Positions 17,519 to 63,599 of a stretch of DNA of 64,000 bases are shown here, in pieces. The position numbers were made by a program, and so were the translations under genes. Position 1 is the stretch's first letter; the number at the start of each line of letters is the position of its first letter. The stretch is taken from positions 47,830-111,829 of the forward strand of contig JAZLBQ010000004.1 of NCBI GenBank assembly GCA_045613785.1. The letters are read 5' to 3'. Source of the stretch: Candidatus Enterousia sp. Lineage in GTDB: Bacteria > Pseudomonadota > Alphaproteobacteria > Rs-D84. The notes beneath the pieces are model-generated. The model did not search any database. It saw only the letters and a list, made by a program, of their open reading frames with translations, and was not told the DNA's origin.

Positions 17519-17533
17519 TATTTTATATACGCT

Positions 17534-20793: not shown

Positions 20794-21330
20794 ATGAAAA
20801 AAATAACATTGATTTTATCAGTCATTTTTGGTGTGTTGTTCTTGGATTTGGTGTCCAAGGGGGCATTGTTGTATTTAATCACGGGTGGCGTTCCCTTGTT
20901 TGGTGCTGCGTGGGACGTTGTTTCTGTGCCGTATTTAATGGCATTTGTGTGCGATTATTTTAATATTGTCTTTACATGGAATCCTGGTGCATCATTTTCA
21001 ATGTTTCGTGCCCTGGGCGAAGCGACTCCGATAATATTGATATTTGCAACTGGTGCAATAATTGGAATGATATTGCATTATTTGTTTACTCGTGCCAAGT
21101 CGTATGAATTGGTGCCATTGTCATTGATTGCTGGTGGTGCAATTGGTAATTTGATTGACCGCATCAGATTTGGTGCAGTGGTTGATTTTCTAGATTTTCA
21201 TATTGGTGGTTGGCATTGGCCTGCGTTCAATATTGCAGACATTTGTATTGTTGTCGGTGTTGGTTTGTATTTGTTAAATATGTTCCTTGCCCGTCGTCGT
21301 TGTTTAAAAAATATAAAGGATGGTAAATAA
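20794..21330 (+). CDS. lspA: Lipoprotein signal peptidase II
   Basis: NPGASFSMF and GGAIGNLIDR...FNIAD motifs. Confidence 0.9.
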   Translation: MKKITLILSVIFGVLFLDLVSKGALLYLITGGVPLFGAAWDVVSVPYLMAFVCDYFNIVFTWNPGASFSMFRALGEATPIILIFATGAIIGMILHYLFTRAKSYELVPLSLIAGGAIGNLIDRIRFGAVVDFLDFHIGGWHWPAFNIADICIVVGVGLYLLNMFLARRRCLKNIKDGK

Positions 21331-21332
21331 AA

Positions 21333-23951: not shown

Positions 23952-26354
23952 TTACAGAATTGGTGGGAAGCAATCACCGCCTGTTTCAGGGCAACAGTTA
24001 AATCCTTGTTCGCCCATATCGGTGTATATTTCTCCTGGACAGCAACCATTTGCATCTGGTGCAATATCGCCTTCGCACATTATTTGTTCAACGACTTCCT
24101 CGACCGCTGGTTTCTCAGGTTTCTCAAATGGATTTTCAATTGCACCTGTTTCTTCGTCGTATTTCAGGCCCAACACCTGTTCATTATATGCTTGCTGCCC
24201 CTGATCTGCAACATATGCAATACTGTTCTGATTGCTTGTTGATTGCTGATTTTGGAATACAGCTTCCTGCTTTGCATTATTTATTGCCTTATATTGACTA
24301 GACTGGCAATAGAACAACACTGTTCTGTAATCTAGGCCTGCGTTGTATATCTCTTCTGCACTTGCTGTAACCTTGCCTGTGCTTAAATCGCAATACTGTG
24401 CCAAATTAAATGAACGCACCTGACCAACCCATTCTTCCCCTGACTGGTCAATATTCACAGAGTTTGCAACGCTATTGTAATTAAACCTATTTTGTTGTAA
24501 TGATTTACTGTAATAACTTTCCATCTTACAGCTTTTGCCACCGTCTGGACACACAACAATCAAGTCCTCTGGGGAATAGACTGTGATACGTGTTCCTGCT
24601 GCGATTGTAAACGGTGGAACAGTGTTATCCATCATATCGACCAACAGCTTTTGTGCAACCTGATTCCAGGCAGTAATGATTTCATTTTTTGCCAGTTCTG
24701 ATGAACGCACAGTTCCACTTTGAACGACTGTGTTGTTGTCCAAATCGATTTGATTTACAAACGCATCGCTGACAGGAGCAATCAAATTCACCGCTGCTGG
24801 CACAATCGCTGTCAACATTGGCATAATAAATTGTTCCATATAATCAGTGCTGCCACGTCCTGGCACGCCAACACGTCCTTGGGCATCACCTGCAAAAGGC
24901 TGATTTCCTTGATTGTTAAAGTTAAATTCAACACCATCTGGTCGTATAAACTGATACCAGTTTATTTGCATACGTCCAATTGCCTTGTATGGGCCTGGCA
25001 AATCACCTGTCACATATCCCAGCATCAAAGTTCCTGTTGGGATAATAATATTACGTCCGTCGTCTGAATAAACGTTTCTATCAACAGTTGCACGAACGGG
25101 CAGGGGGCGTCCATTTTTGAAAACTTCTGCATCGGCTCGAACTTCAGATACAATAGTTGCAGGAATTGGCTTGTATTGACGCAAAATGAAACTGCGGTCA
25201 TACGGTTGTGATGCAACAACGCCATCACCCGAAGTGCCAAATATTACTTCCGTAGTTTCTTTTAGCTTTAGTCCACCAAAAGCTTCCATACCGTTTGCAG
25301 TCAGGCGACCTGCACCACGACTGTTCATTACGACTGCATTTGCTTCATCCGAGTCCAGTTGGCGTGCACGATTTACAACCTTTATTGCAGGTGCATTAGA
25401 CAGTTCTGGGATTTTGCCATCCCATGTTGCAGCAAAAACGATATGGTCTGCATCTGTTCCTATCTTTTTACCTTTGTTATCAGTGATAATACCATTGTCT
25501 GGATTGTATGTTCCTGTTGGTTTTTCGCAGTTTTTATCTGAAAATGGGTGAAATTTATATGTTCCACCATCGGGTTTTATCCAACCGATTTGGACGCCAA
25601 AATTATTATAACCTGGGAAAGCAAAGTCCGTGCATCCATCAGGGATTTCAATTTTTTCAGTTTTTGCTGTCTTTGTCACAGGTTTTTCAATCTTTACTGA
25701 CGGAGAAATTGTTTCGACGTTCTTTTTAATTTCTTCTTTGACAGGCTCTGGTTCTGGCTTTGCTTCAATCACAGGCTCTGGTTCTGGCTCTGGTTCTGGC
25801 ACGATGACAGGTTCTGGGATTGGCTCAGGTTTTTTTTCAACGACTGGTGAAACAGCCCCCAAGGTCAGAACAATTTTCGAAGTCTTTTTCATTGCATCAG
25901 TTTCATCTGCTTTGTGCCAGTCAACGAACACAGGAACTTGTTCTGTTGCCATTGGTGCAGTTGGTGCATATGAAACAATCACCCCACAGGCTAGATTTTC
26001 GTTTATCTGTCCCATTTCAGTGCAAGTTCCTTTGACATCAAATCCCTTGATGTCCTTGTGGCGACGAACAGAAATCACCTTAACAGGAGCTGTTGCAGAA
26101 ATCTTGATTGTTTCAGTTTTTTTCTGTCCGATTGTCGTTTCTGCCCAGTTTATCATATCAGGGGAAATGACAATATCTACTGATCCGCTATCAGTGCTAG
26201 AAATATCTGATTTGCTTGATTTTTTATTATTTCCACTCAGCAGCAAGGTCAACAATATCAGCACCACAACAAATGCAGCCGCCATCAACAACCACTGCAC
26301 CCGTTTTGGTGTATTTTGTCGCATTTCTGAAAACTGTTCTTTGAAACTAGCCAT
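23952..26354 (-). CDS. virB10: Type IV secretion VirB10/TrbI-family protein, enlarged to 800 aa
   Basis: Short cytoplasmic N-terminus, a transmembrane helix (LLMAAAFVVVLILLTLLLS), a Pro-rich PEPEPEP linker and a TrbI/VirB10 beta-barrel core (RLTANGMEAFGGL...IGRMQINWYQFIRPDGVEFNF...PPFTIAAGTRITVYSPEDL). In addition there is an extra domain of about 120 aa before the linker and a Cys-rich C-terminal extension of about 190 aa (...GCCPGEIYTDMGEQGFNCCPETGGDCFPPIL). Confidence 0.85.
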   Translation of the reverse strand: MASFKEQFSEMRQNTPKRVQWLLMAAAFVVVLILLTLLLSGNNKKSSKSDISSTDSGSVDIVISPDMINWAETTIGQKKTETIKISATAPVKVISVRRHKDIKGFDVKGTCTEMGQINENLACGVIVSYAPTAPMATEQVPVFVDWHKADETDAMKKTSKIVLTLGAVSPVVEKKPEPIPEPVIVPEPEPEPEPVIEAKPEPEPVKEEIKKNVETISPSVKIEKPVTKTAKTEKIEIPDGCTDFAFPGYNNFGVQIGWIKPDGGTYKFHPFSDKNCEKPTGTYNPDNGIITDNKGKKIGTDADHIVFAATWDGKIPELSNAPAIKVVNRARQLDSDEANAVVMNSRGAGRLTANGMEAFGGLKLKETTEVIFGTSGDGVVASQPYDRSFILRQYKPIPATIVSEVRADAEVFKNGRPLPVRATVDRNVYSDDGRNIIIPTGTLMLGYVTGDLPGPYKAIGRMQINWYQFIRPDGVEFNFNNQGNQPFAGDAQGRVGVPGRGSTDYMEQFIMPMLTAIVPAAVNLIAPVSDAFVNQIDLDNNTVVQSGTVRSSELAKNEIITAWNQVAQKLLVDMMDNTVPPFTIAAGTRITVYSPEDLIVVCPDGGKSCKMESYYSKSLQQNRFNYNSVANSVNIDQSGEEWVGQVRSFNLAQYCDLSTGKVTASAEEIYNAGLDYRTVLFYCQSSQYKAINNAKQEAVFQNQQSTSNQNSIAYVADQGQQAYNEQVLGLKYDEETGAIENPFEKPEKPAVEEVVEQIMCEGDIAPDANGCCPGEIYTDMGEQGFNCCPETGGDCFPPIL
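25745..25836 (-). repeat. Simple-sequence repeat (GGTTCTGGC/GGCTCTGGT)n encoding the PEPEPEP linker of VirB10
   Basis: Directly visible nonamer/hexamer periodicity on the plus strand. It encodes PEPEPEPEPV on the minus strand. Confidence 0.6.
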
Positions 26355-26372
26355 CCCTCAAATCCACTAATT

Positions 26373-49885: not shown

Positions 49886-50221
49886 TTATGCGGCCATTGC
49901 GATGTTGGACTTTGAATTGTTGTCTGCTGCGTCCATGATTTTCTTGGCTTCTGCGAAAACCATTTCTTTTACACGCAGTGCTAATGTTTTTGTATCCATT
50001 GTTTCTGCAGCGATATCAAAATTGTCTGTGCGAATCTGTAAAGAAACATAAGCACCAACCAATGAAGCACGTGCCAAATCTTCGATAGAACGAGGTGCGT
50101 TGTTGTGTCCGATTTTTAATTCGTCTGCCAAAGAGATAATTTGACGATCTTCGTTGACCCAAACTGTGGTTGTCAGGACTTGGTTCAGGGCTATCATAAT
50201 TTCTTTAATGTTCTGTGTCAT
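49886..50221 (-). CDS. Hypothetical protein, 111 aa
   Basis: ORF with its own downstream terminator. No recognised motifs. Confidence 0.5.
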   Translation of the reverse strand: MTQNIKEIMIALNQVLTTTVWVNEDRQIISLADELKIGHNNAPRSIEDLARASLVGAYVSLQIRTDNFDIAAETMDTKTLALRVKEMVFAEAKKIMDAADNNSKSNIAMAA

Positions 50222-50609: not shown

Positions 50610-51059
50610 ATGTCATTGTTTCTCTCATCTTATGAAAATCGTTTGGATACCAAGGGGCGGATTTCTGTTCCAGCGTCCTTTCGGGCTTCGGTTTCTGATG
50701 AAAAATTTGCAGGCATTGTTTTATATCGTTCCTTTACTAATAATTGTATCGAAGGTTTAACGCTGTCTCGTATGGAGCAGATGGCAGCAGCAACTGATAA
50801 AATGGGTGTTTTTGACAGTGAATTAGACGATTTGACTGCGTTGTTATTTGCTGATGCACGCCAGTTGGCATTTGATGTGACGGGGCGTGTTGTTATTCCA
50901 GCGGATTTGTTGGCACATGCTGGTATAACTGATACTGCGGTATTTGTTGGTCGTGGTAACAGTTTTCAGATATGGAATCCTGATGCGTTTCGTGCTGCCC
51001 AGACTAAATCTTTGGAAAATCTGCGTCGCACTCGTCCGAATATTAAAATAGGCGACTAA
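50610..51059 (+). CDS. mraZ: Transcriptional regulator MraZ
   Basis: MSLFLSSYENRLDTKGRISVPASFRAS... with duplicated SpoVT/AbrB-like halves. 149 aa from the ATG at 50610. Confidence 0.85.
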   Translation: MSLFLSSYENRLDTKGRISVPASFRASVSDEKFAGIVLYRSFTNNCIEGLTLSRMEQMAAATDKMGVFDSELDDLTALLFADARQLAFDVTGRVVIPADLLAHAGITDTAVFVGRGNSFQIWNPDAFRAAQTKSLENLRRTRPNIKIGD

Positions 51060-51173
51060 AAATCGGTTTGTTTTCTTTCTTGAAATAAAAATATCCCATT
51101 GGGGGTTCTTTTTTATGTTTGCGTGCAAGGGTGCAAAATGGTATAATAAATCAAAAGGAATAATGGGAAAGGT

Positions 51174-52268
51174 ATGAAGAAATTTAGTTTTTCTGCCGTG
51201 TTTGCTGGTGTTTTATGTTCGTTGCCAATGGTGGCGGGGGCGGCTTATCCTGCATATCCGTCGTATCAAGCGGCCGGTGCTAATAATCAGATGATGTATT
51301 TGCCGTCTGTGAACAGTCGTGTTGTGTCGACTGCGGCAGCTATGCCTGGGTATAATTCTGTTGCTGCGGCTCAGCCTACACGTGTAACTGGTGCATTACC
51401 TCGTGTTGGGACATCACAAACTTCGGCTGGTCGTCAATATTATCAGCCTGCAGATTATGATAGGTTGGCAGACAGTGGTTTGTATGTTGGTTTGTCTGTT
51501 GGTTATACTGCATCAGTAATGGGGTCGATTTCGTCTGATTACACTGGCGAAGAAGATGCTTATACTGTTCCTGGTGCGTTCAAGGCAGCAGATTTTCAAT
51601 CAGATACAATGATTCCGCTTCAGGTTTCTGTTGGTGCGGCATTAAATAATGATGTTCGTGTTGACTTTTCTTATTTGCGTTATTCTGGTTTGTCTTATCC
51701 AAACACTGTTCAGACGGACGATGGTGCCGGTGGTTATGTTGAGGCACAGGTTGATGGTGGTGCGATAACAGCTAACGCAACAATGTTGAACGTTTATTAT
51801 AATATTGACTCGTATACAGGCTTTTTGGCTGGTGGTTCATTGCGGCCATATATTGGTGCCGGTGTTGGTATTTCATTAAATACGATTGCGGACTATGTTG
51901 TTTATGACAAAACCTTTTATTCTGTTATGGATCCAGCCTATGCAAATGCAGGTCAGTTGACGGGTATTTCTGATATTTATGCATATCACAACGGTGGCAC
52001 AAATGAACAGTTGGCCTTTATGTTAGAGGCTGGTATTACAACAGAACTAGAAGGTGGTATAAAAATGGACTTTTTTGCCCGTTATGCAAATCTTGGAACT
52101 GTAAAAACATCAGGCAGTATTGTTCTAAGTCAAATTGAATGGCTGGGTGATGGTGCAGGTGGTGAATACGAAGCACCGTATGACAGTGTATTTCATTATA
52201 CGAATTGGTATGAAAGCGGCCGCCTTGGGTTGGTTGATGTTGGTGTTCGTTTAAGATTGCAGTTCTAA
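51174..52268 (+). CDS. Outer-membrane beta-barrel protein (porin / OMP_b-brl-like), 364 aa
   Basis: Signal peptide MKKFSFSAVFAGVLCSLPMVAGAA. Alternating amphipathic Gly/Tyr-rich strands. C-terminal ...VGVRLRLQF ending in Phe. Confidence 0.75.
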   Translation: MKKFSFSAVFAGVLCSLPMVAGAAYPAYPSYQAAGANNQMMYLPSVNSRVVSTAAAMPGYNSVAAAQPTRVTGALPRVGTSQTSAGRQYYQPADYDRLADSGLYVGLSVGYTASVMGSISSDYTGEEDAYTVPGAFKAADFQSDTMIPLQVSVGAALNNDVRVDFSYLRYSGLSYPNTVQTDDGAGGYVEAQVDGGAITANATMLNVYYNIDSYTGFLAGGSLRPYIGAGVGISLNTIADYVVYDKTFYSVMDPAYANAGQLTGISDIYAYHNGGTNEQLAFMLEAGITTELEGGIKMDFFARYANLGTVKTSGSIVLSQIEWLGDGAGGEYEAPYDSVFHYTNWYESGRLGLVDVGVRLRLQF

Positions 52269-52331
52269 AAGAAATAATCGCACCGGGCTGATGCCCGGTT
52301 GTGTTGATTTGTTGCGGCAGGGGGCAATATA

Positions 52332-53975
52332 GTGATGAGACGCAAAAATTCAATCTTTTACTATTCTTTATTGGCGGCATTAGTGCCGTCTGTTGCTGGT
52401 GCTGGAATTCGTGTTGGGAATTTGTCTCGCAATAATGCCCAGGGCTATCAACAGGTAAACGAGGCACGTTATAACTCGGAACTTGCGACCCAGGCAGCGG
52501 TTGCTGCAATTCCTGCTGATTTGCCAACAACTGTTGCAAAGTCTGCGACAGATGACACGACTGTTGCATCCAAGGCACAGCGTTGTTCGATGATTTATCC
52601 CGAAGGTGAATTTGCCTGGGGTAAGCCTACGCTTGGGGCTGGTTCTGGCGGTGCGTCAACTTGCACGGCTGTTGTTGAATTGCGTGCGATTGGGGCTGGT
52701 GAAAATGGTAATGATGCAATCTTGGCACGTGCAAACCTGGCAGCAGGAGATAGTTTTAATTGCAATATTTCTGAATTTAACGAGGTGTCATTGTTGCCTG
52801 CTGCTGGCACGATTGAATTTCCGGCAGATCGTGAGCCAACGGTTGATGATGTTGTGTCTGTTCTGAATCAAGAGCAGCGTCAAAATGCAGGAATTAAAAT
52901 TGCTGCAGGAACTGTGTTGTTTGGTTTAGCAGGAAACATTGCTGGTGAAAACGAGCCTGGCAAGGATGGATTATTGGGCGGTGGTCGCTCTAAAACCCAG
53001 GGGACGATTATTGGTGCATTGGGTGGTGCGGCATTGATGGCAGGTAATGCTTATTCGGGCAAGGTTGCTGGCGATATGATACTGTCAACTGGTGTAAATG
53101 CTGCGGCTGGCGGATTAGTTGGGAATATTGTTGCCAGTGGTGATTCTGTTTTGCGTATTGAACCATGTCAGGTTGCGGGCTGGGATACAAAGTGCCTTTG
53201 GGGTGTTATCGAAGAAGTTTCGTCCATAGACGGCACTGCGTATGTTTCTGCGAATGATATCAATGACTTTCGTGTTTGCTCAGGCACTACATGTGGACGT
53301 GCGGATTTGACGTCTGCTGTGGTTGCGGAATATAACGGCAAAAAGCGTGCATCTGACGGCAAAAAAATGGAATTGTCCGATATGCAGACTGAAAATTGGT
53401 CGTTGGTTCAAAGTATGTATTGTTATGATGCTGCCTACGGTATGGTTCAGGGGGCTAGTTGCACAGATGGTCCGTGGATAAAACTGGATTCTGCTCAGCG
53501 TGTGGCAAATCGCACGGCGGCAATGGTTGTTGATGTCCGGGACAAGGCCTTTGGTTGGCATAAAGATGAATGGTCGGACTTTAAGGCTAGTCATAATGGT
53601 AATTTGATTGTTGGTCGTTCTGGTAATGGTATTGCAACGAATTTGAATCCACGGGATGTAATATCGGATGCGACTGATGATACCGAGATAAAATTGTCGG
53701 CTGTAAATTTCCGTCCTGTATATCAGGATTCTGATGATGGTGGTGTTATTGATTTGAATAACAAGGCACGCCTGAAAAGCACATTGACTGGTGCCGGTGT
53801 TGGTGGTGCTATGGGGGCATTTACTGGATATCAGGGTGCACAAAGTGATATTGATGAACGTTGGGTATCTGCTGTGCGTGAGTATAAGGATAGTTCGCAA
53901 AAGTTTTATTGTGCAACAGGTAAACGTTTCTTGTCGTATTACAATGATGTGGTTATGATTCCAAGTCTGGATTAA
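52332..53975 (+). CDS. Secreted Gly-rich hypothetical protein, 547 aa, with signal peptide
   Basis: MMRRKNSIFYYSLLAALVPSVAGAG signal. About 10 Cys. Gly/Ala-rich segments. No recognised domain. Confidence 0.7.
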   Translation: MMRRKNSIFYYSLLAALVPSVAGAGIRVGNLSRNNAQGYQQVNEARYNSELATQAAVAAIPADLPTTVAKSATDDTTVASKAQRCSMIYPEGEFAWGKPTLGAGSGGASTCTAVVELRAIGAGENGNDAILARANLAAGDSFNCNISEFNEVSLLPAAGTIEFPADREPTVDDVVSVLNQEQRQNAGIKIAAGTVLFGLAGNIAGENEPGKDGLLGGGRSKTQGTIIGALGGAALMAGNAYSGKVAGDMILSTGVNAAAGGLVGNIVASGDSVLRIEPCQVAGWDTKCLWGVIEEVSSIDGTAYVSANDINDFRVCSGTTCGRADLTSAVVAEYNGKKRASDGKKMELSDMQTENWSLVQSMYCYDAAYGMVQGASCTDGPWIKLDSAQRVANRTAAMVVDVRDKAFGWHKDEWSDFKASHNGNLIVGRSGNGIATNLNPRDVISDATDDTEIKLSAVNFRPVYQDSDDGGVIDLNNKARLKSTLTGAGVGGAMGAFTGYQGAQSDIDERWVSAVREYKDSSQKFYCATGKRFLSYYNDVVMIPSLD

Positions 53976-54005
53976 AAAAATGCCCAAACGGGCATTTTTT
54001 TTTAT
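53976..54005. terminator. Bidirectional terminator (ATGCCCAAACGGGCAT) between convergent genes
   Basis: A-run, hairpin, then T-run. Confidence 0.6.
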
Positions 54006-54007
54006 TA

Positions 54008-55672
54008 TTAAACGAATTTTTCAGGAACCAGATTGCAAATGTTTTTCCAGATTCTGCGTAATATCCCAGTGTCTGGTGCGTGTTTGTAAACGCGTGGTTT
54101 TTCGTCGCCTGGTCGTTTGCCTGTCCATACTGGGTCGTTGTTTGCGTTTAGGCTGACCTGCCAAGATGTTTGTGTGTCTTTGATGATCATTTCACGCAGT
54201 TTGTTTGCAAAATCACGACTTTCAAAGATTGCTACGTTTTCGGTATTGTAATACGCGCTTCTTGGGTCCAGGTTGAAACTGCCAATCCAAGAAATGTCGT
54301 CGTCGAACACCATAGTTTTGCTGTGCAGGACAGAAAAACTGGATTGTTTACGCTCACGGTCATGTTCTTTGCCACGCAGATTTTCAGCAGAAACCATAAA
54401 TTCATAAACGTCTGCACCTGATTCAATCAAGTGTTTTCTGTATTTTTCCCACTTTGCATATACGGTTGGTGCATTGGTTGAAGCCAATGAGTTTGTCACA
54501 ATGGTCAAATGAACGCCTGATTTTTCTTCGTTTAACATATGTTCCAATCCACCTTGTCCTGGAACAAAATAAGCAGCGGACATATAGACTGATTTGTTTG
54601 TTCTGTCCCACAGGTGTTGTAATGCACGAACAATTTCGCCACGATATTGTTCTTTTTCTTCCATAGACATTTCGACTTTTTGTGGTGGGTCAGCCAAGAA
54701 TTTTCCATGTCCCCAACTAAAATCAAGTCTTTTTTGCTTAAAATCACGTTGTGCTAGTGAAATAATAGTATTGTATCTGCGAACATCTTCGGCACTTCGT
54801 TTTTCGATATCTTCGAATGTTCGTTCCAGTTTACGCATTGCCTTTTTAGATTTTGCCTTTGGGAAAACGGCGGCGGGTATTGACAGGTGATGATTCCAGT
54901 ATTCGTTAAAACTGTCGGTGGCATAGTGTGTCATGTCTCCGATAAACAGCACGTCGGTATCAGAAAAGTTTGATGCTGTTTCTGGATAGAAATAGTTGCT
55001 GCCAACGTTTCGTCCACCTGTGATATATGCGATATTGTCAACGATGAACAGTTTGTTGTGCATGCGTGAGTTTAATCGATTAAAGTCTGTTAAGAATTGA
55101 GGGTAATATAATAATCTAGAACGGTTTCGAACAGTATTAAAAACTTTAACTTCTATATTAGGGTGTTGGTTTAGCAGCATAACATCGACGATGTCTGACT
55201 TTGTTCCATAGTCATCAACCAGTATTCGAACCTTGACGCCACGGTCTGCGGCGTTTTTTAGTTCGCCAATCAGAACTTTTGAAGAAAAGTCGTTACTGTA
55301 AATGTATGTCTGTAAATCAATTGTCTTAGTCGCCATTCTGGCAAACGCTGAACGTATTACAAATGCAGACAATCCGTCTTCGATAAGTGTTGCACCAGAT
55401 ATGTCGGGGCTTTGGCTAAGTTCATCGTCATAGCACATTGCGATTGGAGTTTTGTATGGGTCATAGTCAAAGTCAGATGACGTAATTTTTGCCTGATAGT
55501 TATCCAGTCTTGCGTCATTTGTTGTTGTTGGGACGGTTGTGCATCCCATCAAGGGTAGAGCTAAAATCCACATCGAAACTTTTTTAAGAATGTTCAACGC
55601 TAGTTTCCTTTGCCTAAAAATAATACAGTTGCGATTATAGTTAAATAAAAACGTTCCTGCAAGTAAATTCAT
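54008..55672 (-). CDS. Phospholipase D / cardiolipin-synthase-family lipoprotein with two HKD motifs
   Basis: HNKLFIVD and LHSKTMVFDD HKD motifs. Probable true start is the ATG at 55573 (MWILALPLMGC, lipobox LMGC). The ORF-track start at 55672 would add 33 aa. Confidence 0.85.
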   Translation of the reverse strand: MNLLAGTFLFNYNRNCIIFRQRKLALNILKKVSMWILALPLMGCTTVPTTTNDARLDNYQAKITSSDFDYDPYKTPIAMCYDDELSQSPDISGATLIEDGLSAFVIRSAFARMATKTIDLQTYIYSNDFSSKVLIGELKNAADRGVKVRILVDDYGTKSDIVDVMLLNQHPNIEVKVFNTVRNRSRLLYYPQFLTDFNRLNSRMHNKLFIVDNIAYITGGRNVGSNYFYPETASNFSDTDVLFIGDMTHYATDSFNEYWNHHLSIPAAVFPKAKSKKAMRKLERTFEDIEKRSAEDVRRYNTIISLAQRDFKQKRLDFSWGHGKFLADPPQKVEMSMEEKEQYRGEIVRALQHLWDRTNKSVYMSAAYFVPGQGGLEHMLNEEKSGVHLTIVTNSLASTNAPTVYAKWEKYRKHLIESGADVYEFMVSAENLRGKEHDRERKQSSFSVLHSKTMVFDDDISWIGSFNLDPRSAYYNTENVAIFESRDFANKLREMIIKDTQTSWQVSLNANNDPVWTGKRPGDEKPRVYKHAPDTGILRRIWKNICNLVPEKFV

Positions 55673-55777
55673 TATATTTTTTAATGATTTAGGAACGTGT
55701 TCTTAGTATTTGTGATTTTTGTGTTAATTTTTATTTTCTGTTATGGTAAAATAATAAAATAGGAAGGGTTGTTTTTT

Positions 55778-58072
55778 ATGAAAAGATTTGTTGCAGTTCT
55801 TAGTGGTCTTTTATTTTTGCCAGCATATGCCCAGGCTGTGCCTGTTTATAGCGAGGCTGATGTCGATACGTTGGTTGGTGATTTGCCTGGTAAAAACGAA
55901 GTAGAGGTTGATGATATTGATGCTGCTGCATTTGTAGTTCCTGTGGCACAGGCGTCTTCTCGTAATCCACGTGCAAGTGCTGCGTCTGCATCACGTGCTG
56001 TTCCTGCTGGGGCGGGGACGACGCCTAATACACGTTCTGCTTCGACACGTGCGACAATTGGTTCCAGAAATGTTTCAAGTTCTACGATTGCACGCAGTGC
56101 GGCTGCGAATTCGATTGCTCGTTCGACTGGTCGTTCTGTTGTTTCTACTGCGGGGCGTAATGCATCACGGGTGGCACGCAATTCAACAGTCCCTGTTGCT
56201 CAGTCTGTTACAGAGCGTCGTTCAGGTGTATCTGTAAATTCTGCTACGAATACTGCACGTTCGGTCAGTGCACGTGTTCCGACGATTGCCACAACGGTCG
56301 GGACTTCTTCTGCAACCACTAAATCAGAGCCTGTAGCTGTTGCGGATGTTGTGTCAAAAATGGACGAAGTTGCGAACTTGACTGCAACATGCAAGACACA
56401 ATATACAGAATGTATGGATAATTTCTGCAATGTTCTGGATGATAACCAGGGGCGTTGCTCTTGCTCAAAAAATATCAAGAACTACGAGAAAACAGAAAAT
56501 GCCTTAAAAGAAGCGACCGAGGCATTAAAGGATATTGCACAGCAGATTCAGTATATTGGTCTGACAGGTGAAGAGATTGAGATTTTGTTTTCCCAGACCG
56601 AGGCTGAAGCACAAATGCAGCAAACAAATGACAGTTCTCGTCTGAAAAACGACTTGGATAAAATTAAAAAACTGTTGGTTGAAGTCAAGGGGTCAACAGC
56701 CTCATCGTCTGAGGTGAATATAAGTTTTGACTTGTCTGGTTTGCTAGATTTTAGTGTGGATAGCAGTGGGTTTGATTTGGCGTCGTTGTTTGGTAGCACG
56801 TCTGCGAATACGTCCAGTATCAGCAATCAGCGTGGTGAACAGTTGTATAAGACTGCTGCGGCTCGTTGTAAAAAGGCGGTTTTAGAAGAATGTGATACTA
56901 TGGGTGTTGATGTATCTGTTATATCTAATGCCTATGACATGGAAATTGATAAGCAGTGTGTTGCGTATGAGCGTCGATTGACTGACACGAACGAAGAAAT
57001 GGTTCAGACAGTTCGTAATGCGAAAAATGTGTTGCAACGTGCTCGTTTGATGGTTGCTCAGAATAAAAATACATATGATTTACGTGGTTGTGTAAACGCA
57101 CTTGATTCTTGTATGCAGGATGACTTTGTTTGTGGTTCTGATTATGAGTATTGCCTGGATCCGACGGGTAAGTATATTGTGAACGGTGAAATTGTTGTTG
57201 GGTCGATGCCAGGTTATGTTATCGATGCTAACCAAACGCCGGCACCATCGACTGATTATCCTAAGGAAACTCTGTATGGCACATGGTATTATGATGAAAA
57301 TGTCTATGCCTGGGGGATGTCTGGTAATATATCAGACTATATAGATAAAAACAACACTTCTTCGGCTGTGACCAAGACTGATGCAAATATGGCGAAATAT
57401 CTGCAATATAAAATTGGGTATAATGATGGCGGCAAGAATTATGGAATGTGTATGTCTGTCTTGAACAAGTGTCAAGATATCACATACAGTAATGGTAAAT
57501 ATCAACCAGATAACCAAGTTGTTCGTGAATACCTGCGTCGCACATTGGTTCAGATAAAGGCCAGTCAAGATGCAGTTTTGCGTGATTATGCATCAAGCTG
57601 CATAGCTGATGTTTCAACTTGTTTGTCGTCAAATAATTACGAAGCCGGCAATACAACTAAAAGCAATATCGCAATCAATGCATGTCGTGCGGAAATTGTA
57701 ACGTGTATGTCTGTAAATGGTGATACGACCAAGACCCCAACCCCAAGTAGTATGAAACAATGGGTTGATGCAATCAATTCAGTTTCATCAGGCGATTCTG
57801 GCACAACGAGTTCTCCTGTTCCTGTTGGTTGCTCTCAAGAATATTTTTATTATAATGGTTCGACCTGTGTTTCGTGCAAGAATGGAACATGGGACGACGT
57901 GCAAAAAGGATGTAAATGTACCACATATTATAATGGGGCGATAACAGAGTATACGGTGGGCGGTGGGTGCTCATGCACAGGTGATACCCGTGAAGAAGCT
58001 GATTATTGCACGGGTGAAATATATGGTTATCACCTGTTTACATCTGGTGGTAGTTATCAACCTGATAAATAA
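55778..58072 (+). CDS. Secreted Cys-rich protein, paralog A (about 764 aa)
   Basis: Signal peptide MKRFVAVLSGLLFLPAYAQA after an AGGAAGGG RBS. Acidic stretch, then an Arg/Ser/Ala/Thr-rich low-complexity region of about 130 aa. Conserved Cys-rich core (CKTQYTECMDNFCNVLDDNQGRCSCSKNIKNYEKTE...). Divergent Cys-rich tail (CVSCKNGTWDD...). Confidence 0.8.
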   Translation: MKRFVAVLSGLLFLPAYAQAVPVYSEADVDTLVGDLPGKNEVEVDDIDAAAFVVPVAQASSRNPRASAASASRAVPAGAGTTPNTRSASTRATIGSRNVSSSTIARSAAANSIARSTGRSVVSTAGRNASRVARNSTVPVAQSVTERRSGVSVNSATNTARSVSARVPTIATTVGTSSATTKSEPVAVADVVSKMDEVANLTATCKTQYTECMDNFCNVLDDNQGRCSCSKNIKNYEKTENALKEATEALKDIAQQIQYIGLTGEEIEILFSQTEAEAQMQQTNDSSRLKNDLDKIKKLLVEVKGSTASSSEVNISFDLSGLLDFSVDSSGFDLASLFGSTSANTSSISNQRGEQLYKTAAARCKKAVLEECDTMGVDVSVISNAYDMEIDKQCVAYERRLTDTNEEMVQTVRNAKNVLQRARLMVAQNKNTYDLRGCVNALDSCMQDDFVCGSDYEYCLDPTGKYIVNGEIVVGSMPGYVIDANQTPAPSTDYPKETLYGTWYYDENVYAWGMSGNISDYIDKNNTSSAVTKTDANMAKYLQYKIGYNDGGKNYGMCMSVLNKCQDITYSNGKYQPDNQVVREYLRRTLVQIKASQDAVLRDYASSCIADVSTCLSSNNYEAGNTTKSNIAINACRAEIVTCMSVNGDTTKTPTPSSMKQWVDAINSVSSGDSGTTSSPVPVGCSQEYFYYNGSTCVSCKNGTWDDVQKGCKCTTYYNGAITEYTVGGGCSCTGDTREEADYCTGEIYGYHLFTSGGSYQPDK
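56390..57230 (+). repeat. Direct repeat copy 1 (conserved core of the tandem paralogs)
   Basis: Aligns to 58807..59640 with mostly synonymous or conservative differences. Confidence 0.8.
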
Positions 58073-58170
58073 ACCTCTTATCATCATTTGTCCTAAAACT
58101 CAATTTTTTCAATTGCGTTGCATTGCGTAATGTGATAAAATGAAACATAATTAGAGGGAAGGATTAAGCC

Positions 58171-60375
58171 GTGAAAAGATTTTTAGCTGTCTTAAGTGGG
58201 TTACTTGTATTGCCTGCATATGCCGAAATTGCACCTGTTTATTATGAAATAGACAGTGATTATGAATCGGTCGATGTCGCTGGTGACAGTGAACAGGATG
58301 TTGATGAAATTGATGTCGCTGCTGTTGCTGTGCCGGTTTCTCAGACAACTGCTCGTGCGTTGCGTGCATCAAATGCGGCGTCGTCACGTGCAATGCCAAC
58401 AGGTGCCAGGGCGGTAAATTCTCGTTCTGCAGCGACCCGTGCAACGACTTCTCGTAATGTTTCGAATTCAAATGTGGCACGCACTGCTACAAATACGGCA
58501 ATGGCACGTTCTGGTGCATCACGTGTTGCGTCTCGTTCAATGGCACGTTCTGGTGCGACACAGATTGCCACAACACGTCAGGCAATGCAGAATAATGGAA
58601 CAACTGCACGTGCAGCGATTGTTCAAACTGATACGGTTCGCACCCCATTATATACCGGTCGGGTCAGTTCACGTGCCAGTGCTGTTCGTGCACGTATCCC
58701 AACAATTACATCTGTTTCTGGTAACGTTTCAACAACAACTGGCGGCACGGTTGATGCAGCTACAGCTGCGGCTGAAATGGACGAATTGGCACAGTTGACT
58801 GATTTCTGCAAGGCACAATACACAGATTGTATGGATAACTTCTGTAATGTTCTGGACGATAACCAGGGGCGTTGTTCTTGTTCAAAGAATATCAAAAATT
58901 ATGAAAAGACAGAAACTGCGTTAAAAGAAGCGACCGAAGCATTAAAAGACGTCGCGCAACAAATTCAGTATATTGGTCTGACCAGTGATGAAATTGAAAC
59001 ATTGTTTACTCAGACAGAAGCTGAACTTGAAATGCAACAAACAACAGACAGTTCACGTCTGAAAAACGATTTGGATAAAATTAAAAAGCTGTTGGTTGAT
59101 GTAAAAGGTTCGGCTGCATCTTCGTCCGAAGTGGATATGAGTTTTGATTTGTCTGGTCTATTGGACTTCAGTGTGAACAGCACGGGCTTTGATTTGACAT
59201 CATTATTTGGTGGCACAACAACAAATACATCCAGTATCAGTAACCAACGTGGTGAACAGTTGTATAAAACAGCAGCCTCACGTTGCAAAAAGGCAGTTTT
59301 GGAAAATTGTCAGAACCAAGGCGTTGATATTTCAATTATCTCAAACGCATATGACCTGGAAATCGACAAGCAGTGTGTGGCATATGAACGTCAGTTGACA
59401 GATACTAACGAAGAAATGTCGCAAACTGTCCGCAATGCTAAGGGGGTTTTGCAGCGTGCACGTTTGATGGTTGCCCAGAACAAGAATTCGTATGACTTGC
59501 GTGGCTGTGTAAATGCACTGGATTCATGTATGCAGGACGATTTTGTCTGCGGAACAGATTATGAATACTGTCTGGATCCAACCGGCAAGTATATCGTAAA
59601 CGGCGAAGTTGTTGTTGGGTCAACGCCTGGCTTTATGGTCAAAAAGGACGAGGGATCTTCTGCAGTATTCCCAGATGAATCTGATAAGGACGCTAAGGGT
59701 AAAAATACCCTGTTGGCTGGCTGGTATTATGGCGAAAAATATGCTTGGGCTGATACAAGTGCTAATGGTGATTTGATGGGGTATATTGAAAACTATACCA
59801 AAACATCAGCTGTAGAAAAGCCAACGTCTGTATATGCTGAATATCTGCAATATAAAATTGGATATAACGACGGAACAAAAAATCACGGTATGTGTATGTC
59901 TGTTCTGAACAAATGTCAAGACCTTTCCTATGAAAAGGGAAAGTATAAGCCTAATAATAATGTAGTTAAGGAATATTTGACCCGGACACTGACCCAAATT
60001 AAGGCGGCTCAGGACGAAATATTGGCAGAATATGCATCAAATTGTTTGTCTGACGTGTCATCGTGTTTGTCATCAAATAACTATGTTGCAGAAAACACGA
60101 CCAAAGCAAACATTGCAATCAATGCGTGTCGTTCTGAAATTGTCACGTGTATGTCTGTAAATGGTAATGCAGCGGCTACTCCAAATCCGGAAGAAATGAA
60201 GAATTGGGTTGCGGGAATGGTTGGTTGCACCAAGGAAGGCTTTGAATGGGATTCAAGTAATAAGAAATGTGTGTCCTGTGTTGGTGGCAGCTGGGATGCA
60301 ACTGATAACACGTGTGATTGCCCATCCGGTGCTTCTTATGATGTAGTCAATGGGTGCGTAAAAGCAGCAAGCTAA
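58171..60375 (+). CDS. Secreted Cys-rich protein, paralog B (734 aa; GTG start)
   Basis: MKRFLAVLSGLLVLPAYAEIAP. GTG start preceded by an AGAGGGAAGGA RBS. Same architecture as paralog A. The conserved core is roughly 85 percent identical at nucleotide level by eye. The C-terminal tail retains CVSCVGGSWDA. Confidence 0.8.
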   Translation: MKRFLAVLSGLLVLPAYAEIAPVYYEIDSDYESVDVAGDSEQDVDEIDVAAVAVPVSQTTARALRASNAASSRAMPTGARAVNSRSAATRATTSRNVSNSNVARTATNTAMARSGASRVASRSMARSGATQIATTRQAMQNNGTTARAAIVQTDTVRTPLYTGRVSSRASAVRARIPTITSVSGNVSTTTGGTVDAATAAAEMDELAQLTDFCKAQYTDCMDNFCNVLDDNQGRCSCSKNIKNYEKTETALKEATEALKDVAQQIQYIGLTSDEIETLFTQTEAELEMQQTTDSSRLKNDLDKIKKLLVDVKGSAASSSEVDMSFDLSGLLDFSVNSTGFDLTSLFGGTTTNTSSISNQRGEQLYKTAASRCKKAVLENCQNQGVDISIISNAYDLEIDKQCVAYERQLTDTNEEMSQTVRNAKGVLQRARLMVAQNKNSYDLRGCVNALDSCMQDDFVCGTDYEYCLDPTGKYIVNGEVVVGSTPGFMVKKDEGSSAVFPDESDKDAKGKNTLLAGWYYGEKYAWADTSANGDLMGYIENYTKTSAVEKPTSVYAEYLQYKIGYNDGTKNHGMCMSVLNKCQDLSYEKGKYKPNNNVVKEYLTRTLTQIKAAQDEILAEYASNCLSDVSSCLSSNNYVAENTTKANIAINACRSEIVTCMSVNGNAAATPNPEEMKNWVAGMVGCTKEGFEWDSSNKKCVSCVGGSWDATDNTCDCPSGASYDVVNGCVKAAS
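58807..59640 (+). repeat. Direct repeat copy 2 (conserved core of the tandem paralogs)
   Basis: See copy 1. Confidence 0.8.
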
Positions 60376-60396
60376 ATAAAGTCGTTTAAAGGCTAA

Positions 60397-60440
60397 ATTA
60401 AATCCCCTGCAATCGCAGGGGATTTAATTTGGTATGTCAT
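60397..60440 (+). terminator. Rho-independent terminator after paralog B (AAATCCCCTGCAATCGCAGGGGATTT)
   Basis: 10-bp GC-rich stem and T-rich tail. Confidence 0.55.
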
Positions 60441-60503
60441 TTGTAAAATCAGAAACGGTAAATTATTCTGTTTTGTTCTTGCTAAATCCAGCAATAGGAT
60501 AAC

Positions 60504-60533
60504 AAAAAAACGCCCAAATGGGCGTTTTGTGTT
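60504..60533 (-). terminator. Terminator for the minus-strand pepO gene (ACGCCCAAATGGGCGT, U-run on the minus strand)
   Basis: On the minus strand the hairpin is followed by TTTTTTT. Confidence 0.55.
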
Positions 60534-62515
60534 TACCACAGTTTTACACGTTCTCCAGGTAATACATACAACCCATCGCCTGATTTTATGTCAAATACAC
60601 TATACCATGCGTTGATGTGTGGCAGTATTCCGTTTACACGATTTTTGCCCAAAGAATGCTCGTCAACCTTGGTCAGGCGTAATTCTTCGTCTGGGCGAAT
60701 GTTCTGTGCCCACGCCCCTGCGTATGCGATAAAGAAGCGTCTGTCTGCACTGATGCTTTCTGCATCACCAGATGGTGTGCCAAAGTTTTTATATGCGTCA
60801 AATGCAATTGTTACGCCACCATAGTCTGCCAGATTTTCGCCCAGTGTAAATTCGCCATTTGCAAAGACTTCGTCGTTTATTTTGATTTTATCGAAATATT
60901 CCTTCATTGTGCTGGCACGTTCATTGAATTTTTCTGCATCTTCGCTGGTCCACCAGTCTTTCATATTGCCATCTTTGTCAAAGTGGCGACCAGAATCATC
61001 GAATCCATGGGTCATTTCATGACCAATAACAGCACCGATAGCACCATAGTTAAATGCGTCATCTGCCTCCATATCAAAGAACGGATATTGCAAGATTCCT
61101 GCAGGGAAACAGATTTCGTTTGTTGAAGGGTCGTAGTATGCGTTGACTTCGTGTGCATTCATATACCAGATTGTAGGGTCTTTTTCCTGGCCTATTTTTT
61201 CAATCCAGAATGCGTCTTCAAATTCTGAAACACGCATCATATTTTCCCACAACGAATCATTTTTGATTTCCAGTTTTGAATAATCACGCCATTTATCTGG
61301 ATATCCAATTTTTGCTGTAAATCCTGCCAGTTTTTCCAGTGCTTTTACTTTAGTTTTATCCGACATCCATTCCAGTTTTTCGATACGCATTGCGTATGCA
61401 CGTTGCAGGTTTTTTACCAATGTCTGCATGCGTTCTTTGGCGTCTGAAGAAAAGTATTTTTCAACATACAGGCGGCCAATTTCTTCGCCCAGCGAACCGT
61501 CCAACATTGCGACTGCACGTTTCCAACGTGGCTTTTGTTCTTTTTGTCCAGCCATTGTTCGGTTATAGAAATCAAAAGATATGTCATATGTCTTGTCGTC
61601 CAAGACAGTGTCTGCTGCACTGACAATTCTGTATTTTAAATACGTTTTAACCAATTCGAAATCGGTGTCGTTCATAATTGCGATTGATTCTGCAATCGCT
61701 TCAGGTTGTGCGATGTTGATAAATTTCGCTGCCTTTGCACCACGTGTGTCCAAGAAAGTGTCCCAATCAAATCCCGGAAATTTTTCTTTTATTTGTTCAA
61801 TGCTCATCTTGTGATAGTTTGCATGAGGATCACGTAATTTTTCTTTGGGATAGAACGATTTTGCCATTCTTTCTTCCATTGCATACAACTTATCGACATC
61901 AACTTCTATGCCAAAGTTCTTCATCTGCTTTTCGATAAATTCACGGTATTTTTTGCGAACTTCAACTGTTTTAGCGTCTGTGTCAAAATAATAATCACGG
62001 GACAACCCCAGACCGCCCTGACCAATATTATACAGATAGTGTTCGCTGTCCATTTCGTCCAGTGCAACACCGTCGCCCCAAAAAGCAGACGTAAACTTGT
62101 GCATTTGCCCCAGGTATTTTTCTAGGTCTTTGCGTTCCAGTTTGTCGATTTGGGCAAACAGTGGCGACACAGGTTGAATGCCGTCTTGATTTAATTTCTT
62201 TTCGTTCATTGCAATGCTATACAACTGGCCAATTTTGCCATTATCGTTTTCTGCGATTTCACGTGTGCGTTCCAGATTGGTGTTGCGTAATACTTCAAAA
62301 GCACCGTATCTTGAATAGTCGTCTGGGATTGGATTGTGTTTCTGCCAACCTGCGTTTGCGTATGCATAGAAATCGTCGCCTGGTTTGACTGACATATCCA
62401 TATTTTCGATTTTGATACCTGCACTCACCACTTTCTCCTTTGTTGCATTGTGTGCCCAAACGATTGCAGTCAACACCGCAACCACGCCTATAAAGTTCCA
62501 AAATTTACTTTCCAT
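60533..62515 (-). CDS. pepO: M13-family zinc metallopeptidase (PepO / neprilysin-like), 660 aa
   Basis: HEMTHGFDD (HExxH), ENLADYGG and NAYY motifs. N-terminal signal anchor. Confidence 0.9.
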   Translation of the reverse strand: MESKFWNFIGVVAVLTAIVWAHNATKEKVVSAGIKIENMDMSVKPGDDFYAYANAGWQKHNPIPDDYSRYGAFEVLRNTNLERTREIAENDNGKIGQLYSIAMNEKKLNQDGIQPVSPLFAQIDKLERKDLEKYLGQMHKFTSAFWGDGVALDEMDSEHYLYNIGQGGLGLSRDYYFDTDAKTVEVRKKYREFIEKQMKNFGIEVDVDKLYAMEERMAKSFYPKEKLRDPHANYHKMSIEQIKEKFPGFDWDTFLDTRGAKAAKFINIAQPEAIAESIAIMNDTDFELVKTYLKYRIVSAADTVLDDKTYDISFDFYNRTMAGQKEQKPRWKRAVAMLDGSLGEEIGRLYVEKYFSSDAKERMQTLVKNLQRAYAMRIEKLEWMSDKTKVKALEKLAGFTAKIGYPDKWRDYSKLEIKNDSLWENMMRVSEFEDAFWIEKIGQEKDPTIWYMNAHEVNAYYDPSTNEICFPAGILQYPFFDMEADDAFNYGAIGAVIGHEMTHGFDDSGRHFDKDGNMKDWWTSEDAEKFNERASTMKEYFDKIKINDEVFANGEFTLGENLADYGGVTIAFDAYKNFGTPSGDAESISADRRFFIAYAGAWAQNIRPDEELRLTKVDEHSLGKNRVNGILPHINAWYSVFDIKSGDGLYVLPGERVKLW

Positions 62516-62516
62516 T

Positions 62517-63599
62517 TCATTTCACCAAATTTACTGTTACATCGTCCAGAATCAATAATCCATTTGGGGTTGCACGAATGCGACCGTCTTGAATCTGAAC
62601 CAGTTCAGGGTTGTTTTTGACCCAGTCTATATCAATAACCTTTTTTACATCGTCTGTCAATTGGCAACCGCACACAGTCCGCATTCCCATCAAGACTTTT
62701 TCAATTGCTCGTGTTTCATTATCGATTGCGACAAATTTTTGATTTGCACCCATTTGTTCATACCAAATGCCATCAATACAAACTCTGCCTGCTGCACCAC
62801 GTCCGATGCCGATGTATGCACCGCCGTCCCATATGTTTAAATTATGCTGGCATTCGTTCCCTGGGGTTGCATAGTTTGAAACCTCATATCGGGGCAGGGT
62901 CAGTGTTTTTTCTATCGCCATATACATATCTGCCATTATTTCATTGTCTGGCATATTTAAATTCATTTTTCCAAAAGGTGTGTTCGGCTCTATTGTCAGT
63001 TCGTATAAAGAACAGTGTTCAATTCCGATTTGGTTTATTTGTTCGCACGTTAAAATAACATCATTTACTGTTTCGTTTGGCAGTCCATAAATAAAGTCAG
63101 CCGATGTTCGCAAATTTAACTTTTTTGCAGATTGAATCAATTTGATTGTATCGTTTGCACTGTGTCTGCGTCCCAAAAATTTTAGTTTTTCATCACTTAA
63201 ACTTTGAACGCCGATTGAAATACGGTTGATTCCAGCTTGGACAAAGTCTTTTAATTTGTCTTCGTCAATCGTTCCAGGGTTAGCCTCTATGGTGATTTCT
63301 GCGTCTTTGGGTAAAATAAAGTTTTGTTTTAATATCTGGATAATTTTTTCAAAGCAATCAACTGGCATCAGCGAAGGTGTGCCACCACCAAAGAATACAG
63401 TTGGCACGATTATGTCAGGCATTTTTTCAGCCCACTGCAAGATTTCCTTGCAAATACCATCTGAGTATTCTGTCCAGTCTGGGTTTGCACATGCCCACGA
63501 CATAAAAGCACAATAATTGCACTTTGATTTGCAAAAAGGCACATGAATATAAATATTGTGTGGCATATTTTTCATTTCATCGGACAGTTTACAACACAA
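62517..63599 (-). CDS. hemW: Radical-SAM HemW-like heme chaperone / coproporphyrinogen-III-oxidase-like protein
   Basis: YIHVPFCKSKCNYCAF gives a CxxxCxxC motif. HemN-family C-domain. Probable start at the internal MKNMPHN or MPHN. Overlaps the pepO start. Confidence 0.85.
   Translation of the reverse strand: MCCKLSDEMKNMPHNIYIHVPFCKSKCNYCAFMSWACANPDWTEYSDGICKEILQWAEKMPDIIVPTVFFGGGTPSLMPVDCFEKIIQILKQNFILPKDAEITIEANPGTIDEDKLKDFVQAGINRISIGVQSLSDEKLKFLGRRHSANDTIKLIQSAKKLNLRTSADFIYGLPNETVNDVILTCEQINQIGIEHCSLYELTIEPNTPFGKMNLNMPDNEIMADMYMAIEKTLTLPRYEVSNYATPGNECQHNLNIWDGGAYIGIGRGAAGRVCIDGIWYEQMGANQKFVAIDNETRAIEKVLMGMRTVCGCQLTDDVKKVIDIDWVKNNPELVQIQDGRIRATPNGLLILDDVTVNLVK

Follow-up and report, generated by a model that had tools for sequence, protein, structure and literature searches.

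Do six consecutive genes for exported proteins form one locus for surface remodelling or host interaction, or have they come to lie side by side independently? The question is raised by positions 51174-62515 of a 64,000-nucleotide stretch of contig JAZLBQ010000004.1 (assembly GCA_045613785.1), referred to here as the window, with a GC content of ~41%. Its source, Candidatus Enterousia sp., belongs to the uncultured order Rs-D84, Enterousia being inhabitants of animal guts with genomes of <1 Mb from which the tricarboxylic acid cycle and respiratory chains are absent (PMC12306168). A sequence-only reading had proposed a single locus directly after an orphan mraZ, composed of genes for an outer membrane protein (OMP), a Gly-rich secreted protein, a phospholipase D (PLD)-family lipoprotein, two Cys-rich paralogues and an M13 peptidase, and had considered that the PLD and the peptidase could act on host lipids or peptides. 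The better supported answer, given here with some reserve, is that four transcription units, each conserved in its own right, have come to lie next to one another by chance, an arrangement seen in this species and in its closest relative. Two pairings within the stretch are conserved and probably functional, namely the OMP gene followed by the gene for a putative glycine-zipper protein, and the gene for a ClsO-type lipoprotein lying divergent from the gene for an Arg/Cys-rich protein.

All six open reading frames (ORFs) are present where they had been placed, with starts in the region corrected to TTG 55597 for the PLD gene, ATG 55778 for the first Cys-rich gene (CysA) and ATG 50610 for mraZ. 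All six carry N-terminal signals that mark them as exported proteins of the envelope, the M13 peptidase having a hydrophobic segment with no lipobox; the family assignments hold as well, with two HxKxxxxD (HKD) motifs and a lipobox in the PLD, a paralogous Cys-rich pair, an OMP-like protein and a genuine M13 member. Lengths are given in amino acids (aa).

51174-52268, plus strand: lineage-specific OMP, 364 aa, probably a small β-barrel (signal peptide, C-terminal RLRLQF)
52332-53975, plus strand: exported putative glycine-zipper protein, 547 aa, with a signal peptidase I (SPase I) signal and no lipobox, directly 3' of the OMP gene
54008-55597, minus strand: ClsO-type (ClsC-like) PLD-family lipoprotein, 529 aa, predicted outer membrane cardiolipin synthase (PLDc_2 twice, similarity to ClsC, lipobox)
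55778-58072, plus strand: CysA, diverged tandem copy, 764 aa from its most likely start ATG 55778 (sequence, alignment)
58171-60375, plus strand: CysB, orthologue of a genus-wide Arg/Cys-rich exported protein, 734 aa (family comparison)
60533-62515, minus strand: M13 (PepO/neprilysin-like) zinc metallopeptidase, second gene of a hemW-M13 operon (Pfam M13_N and M13)

Gene order across related species

The sequences show which genes and motifs are present, how the products relate to other proteins and how often neighbours recur; localisations, enzymatic activity and physical or functional links between partners are what we infer from them. Synteny was followed in one genome per species at 80 loci which hold a relative of the Cys-rich protein, searched with all proteins of the window. 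The gene order of the window is repeated at only one of these species loci (L008), in a sister metagenome-assembled genome (MAG) with 82-98% protein identity, and the six genes do not behave as a single co-inherited island. The OMP and Gly-rich genes are found within 10 kb of the Cys-rich gene at 5 of the 80 loci, and the mraZ/orf111 and hemW/M13 genes at ~45%. Scattering of the orthologues in other genomes, named beforehand as the observation that should overturn the single-locus proposal, is what is seen for the six-gene set, while two gene pairs within the stretch stay together. Terminator-like hairpins follow mraZ, CysB and the M13 gene, and others lie between the OMP and Gly-rich genes and between the convergent genes for the Gly-rich protein and the PLD.

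The run of exported-protein genes had also been taken to exceed random placement. A crude N-terminal scan over the 39 ORFs of the window finds signal- or transmembrane (TM)-like starts in ~14, and the six genes count as four separate units, since two form an operon, two are tandem duplicates and two stand alone; for both reasons the run is not statistically remarkable, and at p ~0.35 several runs of such size are expected in a genome of ~850 genes.

The ClsO-type lipoprotein and its divergent neighbour

ClsO has been defined as a ClsC-like protein with a lipoprotein signal and two HKD motifs, and described as a surface-exposed cardiolipin synthase lipoprotein of the outer membrane of Acinetobacter baumannii and other Proteobacteria, with homologues reported from α-proteobacteria (Herrera et al., PNAS 2026, PMC12846801). 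On these sequence criteria, the Enterousia PLD is of the ClsO type. A longer ORF from 55672 is over-extended, as the cluster representative and the orthologues have 529 aa; the start at TTG 55597 is preceded by an AAGGAA ribosome-binding site and yields the lipobox N-terminus MNILKKVSMWILALPLMG, cleaved before CTTV. Pfam PLDc_2 matches twice (E 8e-34), and the two motifs are HNKLFIVD at residue 180 and HSKTMVFD at residue 425. Every one of the 57 full-length orthologues carries at least two HxKxxxxD motifs (56 have two and one has three) and, by pattern, a lipobox [LFMI]xGC followed by TTV. A lipobox is likewise present in 40 of 59 distant environmental relatives. ClsC is the closest of the Escherichia coli cardiolipin synthases (Cls) in BLASTP (216 bits, 31% identity over residues 61-529, E 2e-68; ClsB 67.8 bits, ClsA 43.1 bits). 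The NCBIfam equivalogs of ClsA and ClsB stay below their cut-offs (TIGR04265, 98.9 vs 290 bits; NF008427, 78.2 vs 281 bits) and no 19-residue hydrophobic window rises above the TM cut-off (mean hydropathy 1.6), so that the characteristics of an inner-membrane ClsA or ClsB are lacking. Weak NCBIfam matches had brought up a Nuc-like nuclease and DISARM DrmC as candidates, both ruled out by the full-length alignment with ClsC.

Judged in this way, the PLD is most likely not a phospholipase aimed at the host, and not a Cls of the inner membrane either. Action on host lipids thus becomes unlikely, while the counter-proposal that the protein might turn out to be an inner-membrane cardiolipin synthase was probably correct as to the activity and mistaken as to the place, the protein being of the outer membrane lipoprotein type. 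Earlier descriptions of clsO as a 'secreted phospholipase' or PLD virulence factor are considered misannotations, and every ClsO homologue tested so far made cardiolipin (PMC12846801). With 74-87% identity across species, as against 49-64% for the Cys-rich protein, the PLD ranks with the best conserved products of the region, which fits a housekeeping role. By homology, the lipoprotein would pass through Sec export, LspA processing and Lol sorting and would convert phosphatidylethanolamine and phosphatidylglycerol to cardiolipin at the outer membrane, as a function of envelope housekeeping and not of attack on host lipids. The window contains lspA for signal peptidase II (20794-21330), immediately 5' of yidC (both at 20794-22892, plus strand), and the lipoprotein-processing step which a ClsO-type protein needs is therefore encoded.

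Of the 77 Cys-centred loci with enough flank, 69 have the PLD gene upstream of the Cys-rich gene in divergent orientation. In 51 of these 69 the two are directly adjacent with a gap of 128-289 bp; in the other 18 species loci (from L008 to L087) the gap measures 1,242-1,282 bp, room for a single gene of ~1 kb, and the divergent orientation is retained where an inserted gene separates them. At two loci (L001:8893-9915 and L002:5408-6430) an annotated NAD-dependent epimerase/dehydratase of ~340 aa is encoded between them on the Cys strand; if the same gene fills the 18 matching gaps, it would be the sole interruption of the pair seen. Reciprocally, when metagenome contigs were searched with a PLD profile, a Cys-rich gene adjoined 13 of 13 PLD genes that reached 67% identity and had 2 kb or more of sequence upstream. 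On each side, the largest ORFs outside the pair sort into at least 30 different clusters, which implies that the pair has outlived many rearrangements. Cys-centred loci without a PLD gene may be second paralogues; L025 and L057 come from one MAG.

Divergence is accompanied by a shared control region, the elements of which are listed here together with those of the CysB gene.

55598-55777, no strand: PLD/Cys control region, 180 bp (sequence and alignment of 41 orthologous intergenic regions)
55662-55657 and 55639-55634, minus strand: PLD promoter, -35 TTGCAG and -10 TATAAT (sequence)
55669-55674 and 55682-55687: inverted repeat TCATTA, 7 nt, TAATGA (conserved in the intergenic alignment)
55693-55702: GAAC-GT-GTTC repeat in the control region
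55744-55752, plus strand: extended -10 element TGgTAAAAT of the Cys promoter (sequence)
58113-58141, plus strand: promoter copy of CysB, TTGCGT, 17 nt, TGaTAAAAT (same motif as the family-wide Cys promoter)
60392-60433, plus strand: terminator-like hairpin after CysB, 19-bp stem (hairpin scan)

The back-to-back promoters are conserved across the PLD/Cys spacers of 41 species: a Cys-side TGnTAnAAT is present in 37 of the 41, positioned 25-35 nt 5' of the ATG in 36 of these 37, a -10 element on the PLD side in 40, and the conserved block between the promoters carries TCATTA-N7-TAATGA and a GAA…TTC repeat. Such a tight reciprocal linkage suggests co-regulation and a shared role at the outer membrane, where ClsO and the Cys-rich protein may work jointly.

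The partner is an exported protein of ~700 aa, whose gene is duplicated here. CysB is orthologous to the single-copy gene of other species and CysA is a diverged duplicate, with 61% identity between the two over 756 columns; tandem copies occur at 8 of the 80 species loci. Both have an SPase-I-type signal of the form MKRF[VL]AVLSGLL.LPAYA, at the end of which cleavage is expected. In CysB, the signal peptide (1-18) is followed by an acidic segment (19-55, net -12) and a basic segment (56-200) with 19 Arg and 0 Lys, a net charge of +17 and 59% S/T/A/N, by two near-invariant core blocks (201-490 and 561-680, Cx6C-containing and helical) on either side of a variable loop (491-560), and by a Cys-rich tail (681-734) with one 'C..GGTW….C.C' repeat. 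Eighteen Cys are invariant in the family and seven spacings in CysB are Cx6C, those of the second core block (residues 575-660) lying within or at the start of predicted helices. Spacing and helix prediction together suggest disulfide-stapled helix pairs. The Arg-only segment would suit anionic head groups such as those of cardiolipin and the lipid A phosphates. Carried further, ClsO and the Arg/Cys-rich protein could constitute a dedicated two-part outer membrane system in which cardiolipin, produced on the spot by ClsO, docks the Arg-only segment and a disulfide-stapled, helical Cx6C stalk displays the variable Cys-repeat tails; we consider this specific model quite unlikely as it stands. 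If it were true, a gut symbiont with a reduced genome would anchor a surface protein in a way that depends on a lipid synthase, and the Arg/Cys-rich protein would be the first dedicated partner of ClsO.

Searches of Pfam, NCBIfam and PHROGs, and single-sequence and/or profile searches of the PDB, return no relative of the Cys-rich family, which has >1,200 relatives in a word-indexed search and 613 representatives at 50% clustering, none of them named. Foldseek of a model of the CysB core against the PDB gives only generic coiled coils at E>1, and no fold is claimed. Variation among members concerns chiefly how many Cys repeats they have at the C-terminus. Giant relatives of 1,400-2,338 aa (P0371, P0372, P0378, P0384; L092:8001-15017) contain long 'C..GGTW....C.C..G..W' arrays and are without a match in Pfam; the one at L092 has terminase, ParB-methylase and Fic genes as neighbours, a setting that resembles a prophage. 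Several large paralogues with 33% identity to CysB stand in tandem at L089:5716-10232 and 14426-18232 with no PLD gene near, an arrangement that indicates an independent expansion of the family. Secretion of the Cys-rich proteins by a type IV secretion system (T4SS), suggested by virB8-10 in the window, is ruled out by their Sec signal peptides, and neither an autotransporter barrel nor a two-partner or type I secretion partner, as devices for outer membrane translocation, was found beside Cys genes in the loci inspected.

The OMP operon and the flanking units

Wherever either gene of the OMP/glycine-zipper pairing was found (12 loci), the OMP gene is directly followed by the glycine-zipper gene, amid unrelated neighbours. 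The operon has the following control elements.

51119-51147, plus strand: predicted sigma-70 promoter of the OMP operon, TTGCGT, 17 nt, TGgTATAAT with extended -10 (read from sequence only)
52282-52299, plus strand: GC-rich hairpin between the OMP and glycine-zipper genes, possible attenuator or mRNA stabiliser (hairpin scan)
53974-54001, no strand: bidirectional terminator-like hairpin between the convergent glycine-zipper and PLD genes (hairpin scan)

A hairpin recurs at the position between the two genes in 8 of 10 related loci with differing sequence, which fits an attenuator or an mRNA stabiliser; it would lower expression of the glycine-zipper gene or stabilise the message.

The OMP has the signal peptide MKKFSFSAVFAGVLCSLPMVAGA, cleaved before AY, and the C-terminus VGVRLRLQF, and thus combines an export signal with a C-terminal β-signal ending in an aromatic residue. 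The final RLQF (R361, L362, Q363, F364) is invariant in 31 sequences and RLRLQF almost so, cross-species identity is 70-96%, and eight to ten amphipathic strands are discerned in the family, from which the protein is probably a small β-barrel. Its Surface_Ag_2 score of 16.5 bits lies under the Pfam gathering threshold of 22, with sub-threshold matches in 23 of the 31 family members; a profile search of the PDB with the family finds nothing, and all 776 relatives are labelled 'hypothetical'. The mature N-terminus (residues 24-100, 51174-51460) forms a conserved non-barrel extension of ~75-95 residues, AYPAYP...TRVTGALPRVG...AGRQYYQPADYDRLADSG, which could be a periplasmic tether or plug. Covalent attachment to peptidoglycan through a terminal Ala-Asp motif, as is reportedly the case in Brucella, was considered, but the mature end is AYPAYP. 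At three loci (L093:2536-3687, L094:2571-3689, L004:5673-6704) a protein of ~340-385 aa is encoded just upstream of the pair, with a faint OMP_b-brl match in one, no similarity to the OMP in tblastn and no counterpart in the window.

The Gly-rich protein (11.3% Gly, 13% Ala; 763 relatives) has the signal LVPSVAGA, cleaved before GIRV, with no Cys or lipobox. In an AlphaFold2 model with a predicted local distance difference test (pLDDT) score of 70.5, G/A/S-rich helices span residues 186-267, a β-rich domain 276-470 and a long helix 478-522, which contains LTGAGVGGAMGAFTGYQGA. No family at threshold was found in Pfam, NCBIfam or PHROGs, nothing meaningful in sequence and profile searches of the PDB, and no match at E<0.1 when the model was compared with the PDB by Foldseek. 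The operon would provide a lineage-specific small OMP together with an exported protein that has putative glycine-zipper helices in its centre and at its C-terminus; in the favoured mode of action, plausible by analogy with SlyB, YfgH and TraT, the zipper hairpins would enter the outer membrane alongside the OMP. YfgH stabilises cardiolipin-rich domains and OMPs (bioRxiv 10.64898/2025.12.22.696046).

Two further units flank the pairs, one upstream of the OMP operon and one which includes the M13 peptidase.

49886-50221, minus strand: orf111, 111 aa, divergent partner of mraZ, not exported (weak FtsK_gamma match only)
50610-51059, plus strand: mraZ, uncoupled from rsmH and the dcw genes (Pfam MraZ, E 4e-20)
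51093-51106: terminator-like hairpin after mraZ
60507-60528, minus strand: terminator-like hairpin after the M13 gene
62517-63599, minus strand: hemW-like radical-SAM gene, 1-nt gap to the M13 gene

The description of mraZ as an orphan is borne out: the gene 3' of it is that of the OMP and not the beginning of a dcw cluster with rsmH, ftsL and ftsI, and an E. coli RsmH query finds no match in the window or in ~170 related loci, including all 36 with MraZ. MraZ scores 149.5 bits in NCBIfam against a cut-off of 162. In 34 of the 36 loci orf111, for which Pfam, NCBIfam and PHROGs offer no family, is divergent from mraZ; where this pair is near the ClsO/Cys pair, order and orientation vary among species. 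Inspection by eye upstream of mraZ, the OMP gene and in the ClsO/Cys region reveals no convincing array of MraZ-type direct repeats, and an MraZ regulon is consequently not claimed.

The peptidase is an M13 member by both Pfam domains (Peptidase_M13_N, E 3e-104; Peptidase_M13, E 3e-64) and by the zinc motifs HEMTH at 499 and ENLAD at 560. Its hydrophobic N-terminus FWNFIGVVAVLTAIVWA has no lipobox and may be either a signal anchor or a signal that is cleaved off. The gene is directly downstream of hemW on the same strand in 35 of 38 loci, so keeping company with hemW and not with the Cys genes, and the enzyme of this hemW-pepO (M13) operon would be exported or membrane-anchored.

The remaining content of the window consists of ordinary core genes and envelope machinery, among them rpoBC and genes for PlsX, ComEC, PyrG, LspA, YidC, VirB8/9/10, a TolC-like protein and an AcrB pump. 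Three consecutive T4SS genes (23952-28614, minus strand) encode a TrbI/VirB10-like (800 aa), a CagX/VirB9-like (518 aa) and a VirB8-like protein (223 aa) and adjoin tRNA-Trp and nusG, within a genome of <1 Mb. Another envelope run of three genes (6152-11130, plus strand) comprises a TolC-like OEP, a 202-aa ORF without a Pfam match in the position expected for a membrane-fusion protein, and an AcrB-type RND pump. APH-like phosphotransferase-family ORFs (564-1304, plus strand; 3492-4430, minus strand) stand one either side of a 673-aa ORF without a Pfam match, with tRNA-Glu and tRNA-Gln near.

Competing explanations and known systems

That the six genes constitute one surface-remodelling or host-interaction island, with the PLD and the M13 peptidase directed at host lipids and peptides, is very improbable. 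Export signals on all six products, the gut habitat and reduced genome of the organism, the T4SS genes of the window and the loose regional synteny of the mraZ/orf111 and hemW/M13 genes are compatible with such an island, but its full order recurs at a single species locus, its OMP and Gly-rich genes are usually elsewhere in the genome, its M13 gene is operonic with hemW, terminators part the units, ~36% of the window's ORFs have signal-like N-termini, and the ClsC-like PLD is conserved to an extent unlike a fast-evolving effector. A stronger competitor, although in our view still rather doubtful, is phylogenetic inertia, according to which the PLD and Cys-rich genes are unrelated neighbours not yet separated in a young clade. 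All paired loci indeed come from Enterousia/Rs-D84 relatives with PLDs at least 67% identical, distant homologues of either gene are unpaired, and neither gene encodes a regulator, although regulators usually account for divergent pairs that are conserved; inertia, however, does not readily account for a pair that persists amid at least 30 neighbour clusters per side, that is separated only by one ~1 kb insertion (the epimerase where annotated) with its divergent orientation kept, and that preserves positioned promoter elements and inverted repeats in the intergenic regions of 41 species, while the PLD-less Cys-centred loci may be second paralogues. Unlikely, finally, is a Cys-rich protein serving as an adhesin-like or periplasmic scaffold independent of cardiolipin beside a PLD that is a periplasmic phospholipase or another transphosphatidylase. 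Long Cys-repeat arrays in family members of up to 2,338 aa are typical of displayed variable proteins, one giant paralogue adjoins prophage genes, PLD-family enzymes are catalytically versatile and the NCBIfam cardiolipin synthase cut-offs are not reached; against this stand the full-length similarity specifically to ClsC, the production of cardiolipin by the ClsO homologues tested so far (PMC12846801) and the lack of an outer membrane translocation device adjoining the Cys genes.

The preferred reading, four units with two functional pairings, has its own difficulties. All synteny derives from one genus-level clade, in which some linkage could be inherited order and not selection; a Cys-rich neighbour is found for 0 of 60 distant PLD relatives (30-38% identity), and distant Cys-family members (33% identity, L089-L091) and the giant paralogue at L092 have no PLD neighbour. 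The lipoprotein status of the PLD is a pattern match and not a SignalP prediction, and its ClsO assignment was made by published criteria and comparison with E. coli Cls, not by alignment to a validated ClsO. The Pfam scores of the OMP all stay below threshold, and the AlphaFold2 model of the CysB core is poor (pLDDT 52.7), disulfide-stapled helices being proposed from Cx6C spacing and predicted helices. If the linkages are inherited gene order only, the region is ordinary.

What holds interest are a ClsO-type enzyme locked to an Arg/Cys-rich protein and an OMP/glycine-zipper operon, with functional links suggested by gene order and composition. ClsO was described in 2026 with no protein partners named (PMC12846801), and the locking of its gene to that of one secreted protein is a candidate for a use of surface cardiolipin beyond barrier repair. 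The OMP operon offers a second testable case of glycine-zipper proteins organising OMPs. Three unannotated families of a widespread animal-gut lineage, with ~600-1,200 public relatives each, are assigned to the envelope, and the tempting over-reading of 'PLD plus peptidase' as host-attack enzymes is corrected.

Each unit has relatives among known systems. The Enterousia OMP shares the signal peptide, the strands of alternating hydrophobicity and the C-terminal LRLQF with alphaproteobacterial small β-barrel OMPs (Surface_Ag_2/OMP_b-brl; Rickettsia Adr), but differs in falling under every curated threshold, in its added N-terminal extension and in unusually conserved loops (mean column identity 68%). 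SlyB, YfgH and TraT are outer membrane lipoproteins of ~150-230 aa, whereas the Gly-rich protein of 547 aa has an SPase I signal in place of the lipoprotein anchor of the SlyB/YfgH type (Pfam Gly-zipper_Omp, Gly-zipper_YMGG, Rick_17kDa_Anti) and an additional β-rich domain (276-470) without a structural match; the missing lipoprotein signal and a size three times that of SlyB place it outside the SlyB family. PepO/neprilysin and the Enterousia peptidase have both M13 domains and the HExxH and ExxxD motifs in common, the latter protein being distinguished by a score of 303 against the cut-off of 1000 of the NCBIfam PepO equivalog and by its conserved hemW operon.

For the PLD, the two-domain architecture is shared with E. 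coli ClsC (YmdC), which as annotated has no clear lipoprotein signal peptide and is encoded in an operon with ymdB, in contrast to the conserved lipobox and the lack of a YmdB neighbour in Enterousia. ClsO itself is likewise a ClsC-like member of the PLD superfamily, ~60 kDa in size, which combines two HxKxxxxD motifs with a signal peptide of the lipoprotein type. The Enterousia form, known here from its sequence, differs in belonging to a clade 30-38% identical to its nearest environmental relatives and to an uncultured bacterium with a genome of <1 Mb, and in the fixed position of its gene beside that of a Cys-rich secreted protein, where a term search of PMC12846801 finds a text without operons or neighbouring genes.

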